Translations under genes and position numbers: made by a program
Source: a virus
Lineage: Duplodnaviria; Caudoviricetes
Strand: one strand, 5' to 3'
DNA length: 60,641 nucleotides
Virus record (IMG/VR): IMGVR_UViG_3300018080_001657
Span: 1 to 60,641 of that record
Notes under the pieces: generated by a model
Database searches by the model: none
Told to the model about the DNA's origin: nothing
Seen by the model: only the letters and a program-made list of their open reading frames with translations
Shown here: positions 21,567 through 26,027 of the stretch, in pieces
How positions within the stretch are numbered: position 1 is the stretch's first letter
How the letters are laid out: every line of letters begins with the position of its first letter

Positions 21567-22810
21567 ATTAGGTTTGCTCAGACTTCAGTCCTCAAGATGG
21601 TGCTCAAAGCTGTACTCAGATTGCTACAAGGGCTGCTGAACTAGGCATGTCGGCTGTTGCTCTTACCGACCATGGCAGAGCTGGCGGCTTGCTTCAGCTA
21701 AAGACAGCATGTCATAAAGCTGGGGTAAAGCCAATCTATGGTGTAGAGTTGTACGTGGCACCCGAAAGCCGATTCACTAAAGAAAAGTTGGATGGACACA
21801 CAAAGACATCCTACCATCTTACAGTGTTAGCCAAGAACGAGGAAGGTCTGAAGAATATCTTTAGGCTAACCTCTCTTGGCTGGCTTGAAGGCTATTACTA
21901 TAAGCCTAGAGTAGACATAGAACTTCTTAAAAAATATTCAGAAGGACTTGTTGTTCTGTCTGGTTGTGGCTCAGGTCGTGCTTCTGTCAAAATTATAGAG
22001 GGCGATTTTAAAGATGCTGTTAAAAATATAAAAACATTAAGGGACATATTCAAAGATGATTTTTATATTGAAGTACAGAATCATAATCTTTCATGGCAAA
22101 AACCACTCAAGCAAGCATTGTTTACATTGTCAGATACACTAACTATTCCTATTGTTGCCACACAAGATTCTCACTATCCTAAGAGAGAAGATGCAGTGTT
22201 GCATAATAATATATGTAAATTAGCAGCAGGCGATCTCTCTTTTGATTCTGACCACTCGTGGTTTAAGAGCAAAGATGAAATGAGAGAAATGTTTGATGCT
22301 GAGAATGGAGAATGGGAAGCTATAGATAATACTTCTATTGTTGCCGACAAATGTCAGTGCGATTGGAAACATGATCAAACTATCTGGCCAGTATATGACT
22401 TGCCAGATGGCACTACGCCTAAACAAAAACTAAGAGAGCTTTCTGAAGAAGGGTTTAAGAAGTACTTTGGAGAAGGCACACAGGAGTATCGTGACCGTTT
22501 AGAATATGAATTAAGAATTATTAACGAGATGGGATTCCCTACTTACTTTCTAGTAGTACAAGACTTTATTAACTGGGCAAAGAACAATGGCATTCCTGTT
22601 GGTCCAGGTCGAGGTAGTGGTGCTGGAAGTTTGGTTTGTTATTGTACTGGCATTACAGGTGTAGACCCAATAAAATATGGATTGTATTTTGAAAGGTTTC
22701 TTAATCCGGCTCGTATGGGAAGTCCGAATTTAGAAACTAAAGAAATTAGTATTGAAGAATTTAAAAATAAAATATTCCCCACATTTGACAAAGATTTATT
22801 GCTAGAATAA
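21536..22810 (+). CDS. dnaE: DNA polymerase III alpha, N-terminal fragment (PHP + first palm segment), with in-frame TAG at 21569-21571
   Basis: FIHLHTH*VCSDFSPQDG, ALTDHG, GVELY, HLTVLAKN, KPRVD, SGC, DSHY, GPGRGSGAGSLV, FERFLNP; open from ATG 21647; possible in-frame starts at 21443, 21503, 21536. Confidence 0.9.
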
Positions 22811-22819
22811 GATAGCAGC

Positions 22820-23617
22820 ATGAAACAAATAAACAATAGAATAATAGAGTTATACAAACAGGGAATAGCTGGATTTAAAATTGCAAAAGAATTAAGTCTT
22901 ACCAATCATAAAGTCTATAGTCTTCTTAGAAGCAAAGGAATTACTAGAACAAACAAAGAGAATTATGCTTTAGATTTTATTGATGATTATTTTGAAAAAA
23001 TAGACACAGAAGAAAAAGCTTATTTCTTAGGTCTTATGGCGTCTGATGGTTGTGTGCTAAAACCTAAACAAAGTTCTAGTGTTGTAAAACTAGAACTAAA
23101 ATCATTAGACTCAGAATTGGTTCTTAAATTCTCTAAAGCACTTGGTCTTCCAGAAGAAAGGATAAAAAATTATTCTTATGGACCAAATAAAGGAGAAGAA
23201 TCAACACGCTTGTTAGTTCCATCTGACAAGCTTGCATTCGATTTAAACAAGTTTGGAATTAAACCAAAAAAAACTTTTGACATTACATATCCTAATATAT
23301 CAGAAGATCTAGATAATCATTTTATTAGAGGTTATTTTGATGGAGATGGTTGTATCACAACTGGGCCAACTATAAAAATTGTTGGAACTATTGATTTTTT
23401 AATTATGGTACAGAACAAGCTAATACAAAATTGCTCAGTAGGGAAAACAAAACTACAACAAAGACACCTAAGCAGAGAAAATAATATTAGATCGCTGGAA
23501 ATTGGTGGGCGCTTACAGGTTAGTCGTGTGTATCATTTCTTGTATACTAATTCTACTATATGTCTAGAACGGAAAAAGAATAGATTTATGGAGTTATTAA
23601 ATGAGAATAGAAAATAA
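22820..23617 (+). mobile_element. free-standing double-motif LAGLIDADG homing endonuclease gene inside dnaE
   Basis: YFEKIDTEEKAYFLGLMASDG, HFIRGYFDGDG, LERK; N-terminal HTH; AT-rich. Confidence 0.92.
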
Positions 23618-26027
23618 AATTATAAAAAAAGAATACCAGACTAATGTTATTTCAGAATGGTTAGAATTAACAAACGAACAGAAAGCATATGTATCTTATT
23701 TATTAAGCACAAATAAAAAATACACAAATACTAATAATTCATGGGTGCTCTATGGGCTCGGAATTTCAGACGAGAAGCCAAATTCAGCTGTGTCAAGGAA
23801 TAATGATGGTGGTGGATTATGTGATATTGATGTTGATTTCTGTCGAGACAGAAGAGATAAGGTTATTAAGTATGTAGCAGACAAGTACGGAGCAGATAAG
23901 GTTGCACAGATTGGCACATATGCATCATTTAAACCTAGAGGTTCATTAAGAGCATTTGCACGTGTAATGGGATACGACCCAAATGTAGGACATGTTCTTG
24001 CAAACATGGTGCCCCCAGACGTATCAGGCAAACAGGCTAAATTTAATGATGTAATAGAAGTCTCTCCTGAAATCTTAAAAACAGAGTGGCCAGACGTAAT
24101 TGACATGGCAAGAAAAGCAGAAGGATTACACAATCAAGCTGGCGTTCATGCTGCTGGTGTGGTTATTTCTGATACACCAATTATGGAAAGAGCACCTTTG
24201 TTTCTTGGCAAGCATAAAGAGATTACAACACAGTTCGATATGCATGACGTAGAAGATATTGGTCTTGTTAAGTATGACTTCTTGGGACTAAGAAATCTTA
24301 CTGTTATTCAAGATACAGTTGATCTCATTAAAAAAACACATGGAGTAGAAATAGATTTTGATAACATCGAAGATAAAGACGAAAAAGTTTATGATGAAAT
24401 ATTTAAACAAGGAAGACTTGAAGGCATCTTTCAATTCGAAACATCTTCTGGATTCAAAGATCTATGTGTACAGGTAAGACCCAAGTCTATTGAAGACCTA
24501 GCTGCTATTACATCTCTGTTTCGTCCTGGTCCACTAGGAACTAAAGATGACGATAATAAAAGCATGGTTGATTACTATGTAATGGGCCGCAGAAAGAACA
24601 AAGGAAAATATCTTATTCCTGAGCTAGAACCAATCCTTAATGAAACATATGGTGTTATGACATATCAAGAACAGATTATGAAAATCTGTACAGATATAGC
24701 TAGCTACACGTTGCCTGAAGCTGATAACATGAGAAAGATTATCGGCAAGAAACTTCCTGAAAAGATGAAGTTAGAGCGAGAAAAATTTGTAAGTGGATGT
24801 ATTAAAAACAATATTGACGAAGCAGTGGCATCAAAACTATTCGATGACATTGAAGGCTTTGCCTCTTATTCGTTCAACAAATCTCATGCCGTTGCATACT
24901 CAATGATTTCATATATGACAGCATGGCTTAAAGCATACTATCCTCATGAGTTCTATACAGCGCTATTGAACTCTACAATTGATAACCAAGACAGGATGGT
25001 TAAATATATTTATGCTGCCAAGGAAGATGGAGTTCCTGTTCTTCCTCCTGATGTAAATAAATCTGGATCTAAATTCACATTAGACGAAGGTACAATTCTA
25101 TTTGGCCTGGTAGGGATAAAAGGAGTTGGAGACAAGGCAGTTGAACACCTTGTAGAAGCTCGGACTGGCATTGAGTTTGGCACGTTGGAGGATCTTGTTA
25201 GAGCAAAGATTAAAAAAAGCGTTCTAGAAGCACTTGCAGAATGCGGCGCGTTAGAAGAGATCACAGATCTTTCTAGAAATCAAATCAAAGATCATGCAGA
25301 AATGCTAATCAAACACTTTAACAAATTGACAAAGTGGGAAGAAAGAGCACAGAGATATGCAGCTAGAGAGCAAGAGATTAAAGACGCTGTAGCAGAGGGC
25401 CATAAGCCTCCTCGTAGATTGCCAAAGCTACCAGACAAACCAGAACTTAAACATATTGAGGCTACCGATCCTCTTAGTAGATATGAAAGAATTAAGCTAG
25501 AGAGAAAGACACTTGGCTTCTACTTGACAGGACATCCATTAGACGATTATCCTGGTGTGGTGAGATTAGCTAAATATACTATATCAGGTCTACGCGGAGG
25601 TGCAGCTAAAGACAAGGAAAAGATTAGTATTCCTGTTGTTGTGTCGTCTGTTACTGAGAAAAGAACTCGTAAAGGAAAAAACTATGCAACATTAATCATA
25701 GAGGATTGTACAGGCCGCATGGAGGCAACAGTTTTTTCAAGGGGTTGGGAGAAAATCAAAAACAGTATCGAAGAAGATATGGTGTGTGTCTTGCAAGGCA
25801 GAATTCATAAAGAGAACTCAGACAACGAGGACTCTCCACCAATTATTAGTATATCCGTTTCTGGCATTAGAAAGGTTAATAATGACGTGTCTAATATGAT
25901 TAAAGACATTGGTATTACTTTACGAGACGGAACAACTGTCACATTTAAACCAAGTGAGAATCAAGATGTTGGTTCTTGGCAGCGTGCAGCTACATATTGT
26001 GACAATCTACAAAGGATGGGATATTAA
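23601..26027 (+). CDS. dnaE: DNA polymerase III alpha, C-terminal fragment (catalytic palm, fingers, HhH, OB)
   Basis: DIDVDF, GVHAAGVVI, GLVKYDFLGLRNL, IFQFE, YQEQIM, YSFNKSHA, ERKTLGFYLTGHP. Confidence 0.95.
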   Translation: MRIENKIIKKEYQTNVISEWLELTNEQKAYVSYLLSTNKKYTNTNNSWVLYGLGISDEKPNSAVSRNNDGGGLCDIDVDFCRDRRDKVIKYVADKYGADKVAQIGTYASFKPRGSLRAFARVMGYDPNVGHVLANMVPPDVSGKQAKFNDVIEVSPEILKTEWPDVIDMARKAEGLHNQAGVHAAGVVISDTPIMERAPLFLGKHKEITTQFDMHDVEDIGLVKYDFLGLRNLTVIQDTVDLIKKTHGVEIDFDNIEDKDEKVYDEIFKQGRLEGIFQFETSSGFKDLCVQVRPKSIEDLAAITSLFRPGPLGTKDDDNKSMVDYYVMGRRKNKGKYLIPELEPILNETYGVMTYQEQIMKICTDIASYTLPEADNMRKIIGKKLPEKMKLEREKFVSGCIKNNIDEAVASKLFDDIEGFASYSFNKSHAVAYSMISYMTAWLKAYYPHEFYTALLNSTIDNQDRMVKYIYAAKEDGVPVLPPDVNKSGSKFTLDEGTILFGLVGIKGVGDKAVEHLVEARTGIEFGTLEDLVRAKIKKSVLEALAECGALEEITDLSRNQIKDHAEMLIKHFNKLTKWEERAQRYAAREQEIKDAVAEGHKPPRRLPKLPDKPELKHIEATDPLSRYERIKLERKTLGFYLTGHPLDDYPGVVRLAKYTISGLRGGAAKDKEKISIPVVVSSVTEKRTRKGKNYATLIIEDCTGRMEATVFSRGWEKIKNSIEEDMVCVLQGRIHKENSDNEDSPPIISISVSGIRKVNNDVSNMIKDIGITLRDGTTVTFKPSENQDVGSWQRAATYCDNLQRMGY

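Follow-up and report, generated by a model that had tools for sequence, protein, structure and literature searches.

How might a phage retain a working replicative DNA polymerase when a homing-endonuclease gene lies across the catalytic site of the polymerase gene? This question is raised by the dnaE locus of an uncultured phage, found in a 60,641-nucleotide stretch of DNA (hereafter, the window) that comprises positions 1 to 60,641 of the IMG/VR virus record IMGVR_UViG_3300018080_001657, which is ~28% complete. The gene for DnaE, a C-family DNA polymerase of the Pol III alpha type, is divided here into an N-terminal and a C-terminal half-gene (N-half and C-half) with a free-standing LAGLIDADG homing-endonuclease gene (HEG) between them. 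The N-half ends in a C-terminal extension, or tail, and the C-half begins with an N-terminal extension, or head. We consider it probable that the two half-genes encode an unspliced, two-chain polymerase, held together by a helical module that is split between tail and head.

Anatomy of the split dnaE locus

Open reading frames (ORFs) and Pfam profile borders bore out the initial annotation of a dnaE gene split at its active site by a free-standing LAGLIDADG gene (Table 1). The N-half matches the PHP domain (E = 4.5e-35) and positions 1-103 of the DNA_pol3_alpha profile (E = 4.7e-41), and the C-half matches positions 96-260 of the same profile followed by DNA_pol3_finger, HHH_6 and tRNA_anti-codon. 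All DnaE domains recognized by Pfam, namely PHP, the palm with its GRGS and DxD motifs, fingers, helix-hairpin-helix (HhH) and OB fold, are thus present across the two halves. Because the ends of both halves overlap positions 96-103 of the DNA_pol3_alpha profile, the break falls at the catalytic DxD strand. Both halves align with the intact relatives P0002 and P0004 and together cover a complete DnaE, the alignment of the N-half extending as far as NPAR, and identity to uninterrupted relatives is 70-74% (74% for the C-half against P0002). At the break site these two close relatives read FERFLNPARVSLPDIDVDF, and all 45 uninterrupted rows of the tree set described below read NxxR-(V/I)SxPD-xDxD with neither tail nor head, in agreement with the earlier statement that canonical DnaE is contiguous here.

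Table 1. Features of the split dnaE locus, in window coordinates.
Feature	Position	Strand	Size or content	Basis
dnaE N-half ORF	21647..22810	+	387 aa	
dnaE N-half, canonical part	21647..22714	+	PHP and first palm part, GRGS, FERFLNPAR	ORF, Pfam, alignment with relatives
Tail (first module piece)	22715..22810	+	31 codons (MGSPN...DKDLLLE) and TAA stop	conservation, open frame
HEG, free-standing	22820..23617	+	265 aa	Pfam LAGLIDADG_3
Ribosome-binding site of the C-half	23590..23593	+	GGAG, 7 nt 5' of the C-half ATG, within the last HEG codons	sequence reading
dnaE C-half ORF	23601..26027	+	808 aa	
Head (second module piece)	23601..23822	+	74 codons (MRIENK...NNSWVLYGLGISDEKP...GGGLC)	homologous heads, open frame
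dnaE C-half, canonical part	23823..26027	+	DIDVDF strand, remaining palm, fingers, HhH, OB fold	Pfam

The N-half terminates in FERFLNPARMG followed by SPNLETKEISIEEFKNKIFPTFDKDLLLE, a tail of 29 residues or of 31 when counted from M357. In the C-half, 72 residues of head precede LCDIDVDF and 74 precede DIDVDF; the lengths first given, 29 and 72, were therefore correct, and the values of 31 and 74 used below reflect slightly different borders. The halves and the HEG are adjacent and co-oriented, and the HEG has its own start and stop and is fused to neither half. The stop of the N-half is separated from the ATG of the HEG by 9 nt, the only non-coding bases of the cassette. The HEG in turn overlaps the C-half, whose ATG lies 17 nt within it; the TAA stop of the HEG occupies 23615-23617. 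Over whole segments the GC content is 25.8% in the tail, 29.9% in the HEG and 30.2% in the head, against 39.4% and 38.2% in the canonical dnaE parts (hereafter, exons), and the local counts reported earlier are exact (12/60 at 22741-22800 and 11/60 at 23581-23640, with flanks of 28/60 at 22561-22620 and 25/60 at 23881-23940). A promoter-like TTGACA-17-TAAGAT (10/12) is present at 22785-22813, inside the tail just 5' of the HEG ATG; in a scan for promoters and terminators, counts were at shuffle level (13 found, 14.9 expected).

Tail and head in a family of split and continuous DnaEs

Homologous heads were found in six others of the top 21 C-half relatives (P0003, P0007, P0011, P0013, P0015 and P0021; 7/21 with the window included), and share the motif N.NSw.LYcLGitDeKP....GGSLPDiDvDF. 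A profile made from these seven heads and applied at E<=1e-3 to representatives of 50%-identity clusters identified 117 representatives. The head is N-terminal, as expected of a split gene, in 102 of them and internal in the other 15, each of which has an ERF motif upstream of the head.

Genomic context was obtained from 24 further loci, fetched on related DnaE (L005-L011, L014-L023) or HEG sequences. In four of these (L006, L008, L015 and L021), an N-part, a tail-like segment, a head-like segment and DIDVDF form one continuous ORF. The L006 insertion spans 105 codons, which equals the 31 plus 74 of the window, and the window tail is 42% identical to the in-frame L006 segment and 45% identical to the tail of L005, a related phage from IMG/VR whose layout matches that of the window. 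The gap between split halves holds a LAGLIDADG gene 44% identical to the window HEG in L005 (the same contig as L013), an ORF with a helix-turn-helix (HTH) and a nuclease domain like that of phage endonuclease I (below the Pfam cut-off) in L009, L010 and L017, and one to several unrelated ORFs in L007, L014 and L016; in L011 it is empty. A contig end cuts the L022 locus, and L018, L019, L020 and L023 are ordinary DnaEs caught via their DIDxDF pattern. Since gap content differs among split loci, the split is independent of the splicing machinery of any one element.

These layouts alter one part of the initial annotation, in which tail and head were patches that a mobile cassette carries as its own. 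The same module is continuous in four loci and elsewhere borders another nuclease, unrelated ORFs or an empty gap, which speaks against such ownership. Likewise, the proposed co-occurrence of the head with a LAGLIDADG gene, followed through the profile and the fetched loci, was seen in L005 but not in L007, L009, L010, L011, L014, L016 or L017.

Among close relatives the module is patchy in these sequences. A quick IQ-TREE of the region from DxDxDF onward, for which a careful search was left unfinished, comprised 53 of P0001-P0065 plus L005 (54 rows), with 12 rows excluded because the region fell below 650 aa or exceeded 800 aa. The seven P rows that bear a head are interspersed with the 45 uninterrupted ones. 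With nine rows labelled as carrying a head, among them P0056 (really a split-intein piece) and L005 (a long branch), the tree required 8 changes, at least 7 of them forced by well-supported branches, and 194 of 500 label shuffles required as few. Head identity does not track exon identity (Spearman -0.21, p = 0.36, 21 pairs): the heads of P0003 and P0021 are 59% identical with exons at 53%, and those of P0001 and P0003 are 41% identical with exons at 70%. The module has therefore been gained, lost or exchanged among dnaE genes.

Part of the module may derive from the polymerase itself. As the initial annotation had suggested, a degenerate version of the GS-helix motif is present in the head: hhalign pairs NSWxxYxLGITDEKP with AGSLVCYCTGITEVDP over 19 columns (P = 5.3e-5, probability 67%). 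The companion suggestion, that the tail mimics SxPDID, found no such backing, as hhalign of the tails against the intact catalytic-strand segment gave a probability of 0.8% (one row of the tail set, L008, being misbordered); the likeness traces to a Pfam alignment that sets MGSPN at profile positions 99-103. By sequence, the helices that precede the head motif in several continuous forms also resemble a dnaE segment, YEL..I..MGF..YFL.

Wider scans added no members. No relatives were found in metagenome contigs with two alignments (A1 and A3), in viral contigs with alignments A3 and A8, or in genome contigs with alignment A3, and of 17 stretches of genome contigs that matched a degenerate NSW..Y..G...P DNA pattern, none is a DnaE head.

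Further breaks and repeats were noted in the fetched loci. In a jumbo-phage group the N-half tails end in ..DD.GGVDRY (L007 1880-1924, L014 ~3180-3221, L016 ~1330-1374), and the second gap ORF of L007 (3068-3409) ends with the same ELEDDLGGVDRY (3370-3409), a repeated C-terminal peptide. Both L005 (1527-3213) and L006 (2550-3584 and 3536-) have a second dnaE break between PHP and palm; a 90-aa ORF (2537-2809) separates the pieces in L005, and in L006 the pieces overlap in different frames.

A related endonuclease gene in an annotated dnaE intron

The HEG product matches LAGLIDADG_3 (PF14528; E = 9.3e-8, 32.7 bits against a cut-off of 22.5) and carries, in one chain, an N-terminal HTH and two LAGLIDADG motifs (..LGLMASDG.. 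and ..IRGYFDGDG..) with their acidic residues. LGLMASDG and IRGYFDGDG are conserved in the L005 gap gene and in gp36 of Bacillus phage 0305phi8-36, to which the HEG is 30% identical (E = 2e-29). The gp36 gene lies in an annotated 'mobile intron' (group I) between ..SPPD and IDVDF.. of the 0305phi8-36 dnaE (EF583821, ORF240/ORF036). The two loci are alike in having homologous endonucleases at the same dnaE position (NPxR..PD segment to IDVDF). In contrast to the window, exon 1 of 0305phi8-36 continues for only 6 codons, the tail/head module is absent, and the ORF is followed by 258 nt with stops in all frames that fold better than shuffles. Taken together, the window cassette and the 0305phi8-36 intron would represent one endonuclease lineage with one target in two contexts, both of which spare the host gene.

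A scan of viral contigs with an HEG alignment returned nothing beyond the contig of L005 itself and, in L012, an unrelated fusion. The L012 fusion (3351-5297), which stands in an unrelated phage context, joins a related LAGLIDADG domain (33% identity) to a long C-terminal region that by sequence resembles a DNA methyltransferase.

Coding signatures and the search for intein features

Tail and head evolve as protein. Relative to L005, the proportions of non-synonymous (pN) and synonymous (pS) change are 0.376 and 0.783 for the window head (73 codons) and 0.32 and 0.556 for the tail (31 codons), compared with 0.31-0.40 and 0.74-0.83 for the flanking exons; synonymous changes thus lie far above non-synonymous ones in an exon-like manner. 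The dnaE frame has no stops in the tail, head or insertion of the window, L005, L006, L008 and L011, with 2-14 stops in the other frames (2 and 6 for the window tail, 6 and 7 for the head). The chance that a shuffled sequence stays open is 7.5e-4 for the window head, 1.5e-4 for the L006 insertion and 5e-5 for the L008 insertion. In the intron core of 0305phi8-36 every frame is interrupted (6, 6 and 2 stops), and the RNA folding of this core (z = -1.83) is equalled by only 7 of 200 shuffles, whereas the window head (z = +1.03) is equalled by 170 of 200. Alignments, pN/pS and the open frame thus uphold the original description of tail and head as conserved, translated additions absent from intact relatives.

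At Pfam E<=1, neither the tail nor the head nor the continuous insertion of L006 showed any intein or HINT family, and at E<=0.01 the two whole halves showed no intein family; at the latter threshold the search found the RecA intein of the same window, which served as a positive control. The head contains no His and therefore no HN|C/S/T end. Among relatives there is free variation at the junctions, both in the first residue behind NPxR and in those just ahead of (L)PD, with no conserved C/S start or HN end. These three observations sustain the earlier conclusion that there is neither an intein nor an HN|C/S/T end. Judged by sequence, tail and head are translated protein, and neither intron nor intein.

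Inteins do occur nearby. RecA (687 aa, window 17075-19138) carries a LAGLIDADG-bearing intein, with Pfam matches to RecA, Intein_splicing, LAGLIDADG_2 and RecA_C, which together with the dnaE cassette makes at least two selfish elements within 10 kb. Ten close DnaE relatives (P0056, P0024, P0025, P0034, P0061, P0068, P0074, P0075, P0077 and P0106) have inteins (PF14890) or split-intein pieces at other sites; P0056, for example, opens with an intein C-piece, and the SGSGS of the GRGS motif follows. Mobile elements of several kinds make this DnaE clade a hot spot.

A predicted helical domain and a proposed two-chain polymerase

Structure prediction offers a view of the module in its uncut state. 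AlphaFold2 modelled the continuous L006 form with a mean predicted local distance difference test (pLDDT) of 84.2 and means of 69-92 for blocks of the insertion; the insertion alone was predicted as five helices (pLDDT 74.2, predicted template-modelling score 0.65). The window break aligns after L006 residue 31, between the helices at 13-23 and 32-38. The modelled relative matches Pol III alpha structures (3e0d_A, E = 1.1e-13), and for the insertion alone the highest Foldseek query-based TM score (TMq) was to M. tuberculosis DnaE1 (7pu7_A; TMq 0.38, E = 7.3). Complex prediction of the tail (31 aa) with the head (74 aa), which bears on the domain-swapped heterodimer first suggested, gave a score of 0.01 against a mark of 0.32, which counts neither way.

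We propose that the Pol III alpha-type polymerase of this phage is made as two separately translated chains. Chain 1 would contribute PHP and the opening half of the palm, in which the nucleotide-binding GRGS motif lies, and chain 2 the catalytic DxD strand and everything downstream. Tail and head are the two pieces of one conserved ~105-aa palm-insertion module, situated between FERFLNPxR and DIDVDF, which in other phage DnaEs is a single continuous chain and is predicted there to form a small helical domain. The HEG would sit in the loop after the first helix of the module, with the tail supplying helix 1 and the head the remaining helices. Re-association of tail and head, added to the native palm interface, would then hold the halves together non-covalently, with no RNA or protein splicing involved. 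On this model, tail and head probably help the chains to associate, and we infer both the physical association of the halves and their activity as a polymerase, as well as the target and the mobility of the HEG.

The 5' end of the N-half

The true dnaE 5' end lies upstream of the called N-half in the same frame (21443-21646). This upstream frame reads ..GFIHLHTH, TAG, then VC-SDFSPQDGAQSC..AELG-M(21647), and the in-frame TAG (21569-21571) removes the HLHTH (HxH) start of the PHP domain. In comparison with P0002 (MFVHLHTHSDFSPQDG..), the dnaE 5' end has 9 additional bases, the stop included. The relatives P0005 and P0006 are likewise called from the same internal Met, and a 34-aa leader starting MSFVHHNS resembles a second, decayed copy of MFVHLHTHS. 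TAG recoding was considered and rejected: with TAG read as sense, plus-strand ORFs gain no more length than with TGA or TAA so read, and a suppressor tRNA was not found. The window has two tRNA-Ser genes, at 118-209 and 1466-1551, with anticodons TGA and GGA.

Alternative explanations

The annotated intron of 0305phi8-36, with its homologous LAGLIDADG gene in dnaE, invites the view that the ~1.1 kb stretch 22715-23822 is itself a group I intron with an endonuclease ORF, whose splicing would restore NPAR-xxxx(x)-DIDVDF. The DNA permits a reading, unsupported by any structure, in which exon 1 ends in U (..CGTAT) and the intron in G (..GGTGG), to give NPAR-IGLCD-IDVDF. Rfam returned no intron family, either over 22000-24500 at E<=10 or over the whole window at the gathering score, but it also missed the annotated 0305phi8-36 intron used as a control, and we therefore gave this negative no weight. 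An intron is nonetheless very improbable, for the tail and head carry the coding signature of the exons, are free of stops in no frame but that of dnaE, recur as conserved protein in 117 representatives and are read through in one ORF in four loci, only 9 nt of the stretch are non-coding, the head lacks the folding of the 0305phi8-36 core, and the gaps of L016 and L007 contain several unrelated ORFs. The coding-type substitution, the exon-frame openness and the read-through in L006, L008, L015 and L021 agree with the initial annotation in giving no indication of an intron. Tail and head might instead be halves of an atypical or degenerate split intein that ligates the chains in trans or, if dead, merely docks them, and the genuine RecA intein and the inteins at other DnaE sites show such elements to be at hand. 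Here too the probability seems very low to us: the searches for intein and HINT families were negative, the head is free of His, the junctions are unconserved, and the module is predicted to be all-helical, whereas HINT domains are beta-rich. Also in favour of a split intein is the layout of half gene, free-standing HEG and half gene, which is that of the 'fractured genes', three DnaE loci included, in the sections of PMC2677866 consulted here.

A broken and decaying dnaE, killed by the endonuclease in a phage that relies on another polymerase, would account for the in-frame TAG and for an N-half called without the HxH start of PHP, and in so incomplete a record another polymerase could lie elsewhere. 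Yet the halves are otherwise intact and closely similar to uninterrupted relatives, purifying selection is strong on exons, tail and head, and the split is the majority state in the family (102/117 representatives), which makes decay most unlikely. Another possibility is that the native palm interface suffices to assemble the halves, with tail and head as an accessory insertion domain (for instance, one that binds a replisome partner) or a neutral leftover of duplication. The module is present in continuous DnaEs, where no clasp is needed, and the polymerase's own GS helix recurs in decayed form as the head motif; moreover, in Aeromonas phage Aeh1, whose nrdA is split by mobE, the heterodimer formed without the tails according to the part of PMC3045599 used here. 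We would grant this explanation a minor share of the probability, because 102 of 117 representatives are split exactly within the module, which would be hard to understand if it neither tolerated nor helped splitting, and because prediction places helix 1 in a single folded domain with the remaining helices.

Several considerations weigh against the two-chain reading. A homologous HEG (30%) occupies the same dnaE position in the annotated 0305phi8-36 intron, and splicing is therefore one solution used by this HEG lineage; given the missed control, the silence of Rfam on an intron is uninformative. Among the sequencing runs listed for the region, none is recorded as RNA. In the contigs of 4 runs, the stretch is covered by the probable source run alone (1 contig, 0 differences) and no contig joins across the cassette, the remaining runs yielding short pieces from other organisms. 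The TAG defect of the N-half could signal a decaying gene. Foldseek of the insertion alone against the PDB gave no match at E<=0.001 (best E = 2). Finally, the tails of Aeh1 were dispensable for heterodimer formation in the portion of PMC3045599 considered, and the clasp role that we assign to tail and head derives from structure predictions of a relative.

Beyond the two-chain polymerase itself, we entertain with some doubt a broader possibility: that the module is a portable fission-tolerance domain of phage DnaE that travels with the endonuclease, and hence a third self-neutralising vehicle beside introns and inteins. It would be a small helical bundle, descended in part from a duplication within the palm and open to cutting in its first loop, and the active-site region would become a safe landing pad for many kinds of endonuclease gene. 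The same LAGLIDADG lineage would then use an RNA solution in 0305phi8-36 and a protein solution in the window.

Comparison with known systems

Automatic annotation and phage pangenome work would call a dnaE of this kind truncated, or miss the link between its halves. The window and 0305phi8-36 also permit direct comparison of two host-sparing ways, intron and split protein, for one endonuclease lineage at one site. Were the two-chain reading true, the module would be a natural, compact split-and-reassemble device for a C-family polymerase.

In 2007, Friedrich et al. reportedly described the nrdA-a/mobE/nrdA-b arrangement of Aeromonas phage Aeh1 as a 'gene in pieces'. In the mobE-split NrdA of that phage, the tails are essential for activity, and the authors proposed tails as a possible general antidote to fragmentation, as stated in the portion of Crona et al. 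2011 (PMC3045599) drawn on here. The initial annotation had invoked this system as a precedent, and it fits, functional tails included, as far as that portion goes. If the halves of the window DnaE work as a two-chain polymerase, the notion of tails as antidote would extend to a replicative polymerase cut through its catalytic palm, and what was a one-off would become a large family of 117 cluster representatives, most of them split. Full-text literature searches, which did not cover supplements (among them the integration points of three DnaE loci, PMC2677866), found no intein-less DnaE split at this site.

The 'fractured genes' of Dassa et al. 2009 (PMC2677866) resemble the window in their operon of half gene, endonuclease gene and half gene, in their phage-like environmental DNA and in having DnaE among their hosts. 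They differ in that their halves, as described in the sections available, carry six HINT motifs with catalytic Cys and Asn, none of which we found in the window. Fragmented phage replication enzymes with tail-like extensions are also represented by the T4 topoisomerase gp39/gp60, split by mobA, and by the split gp43 (PolB) of Aeromonas phages with a GIY-YIG gene in the gap (both cited in PMC3045599 and PMC2677866). These are other enzymes cut at other sites, and the excerpts of the two papers on which we draw report no conserved, family-wide module for them.

The closest likeness, drawn from the genes alone, is to Aeh1 nrdA/mobE. According to the parts of PMC3045599 used for this comparison, the two systems share an essential gene, for nucleotide metabolism or replication, cut near its active site by a free-standing endonuclease gene, adjacent and co-oriented ORFs, and C-terminal and N-terminal tails absent from intact homologues, along with the absence of RNA or protein splicing, which for the window is proposed. 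The enzymes are NrdA in Aeh1 and DnaE in the window, and the endonucleases HNH and LAGLIDADG, respectively. Whereas the same parts describe the Aeh1 tails as unique sequences, those of the window belong to a large conserved family of 117 representatives and together equal a 105-aa domain that is continuous in some relatives.

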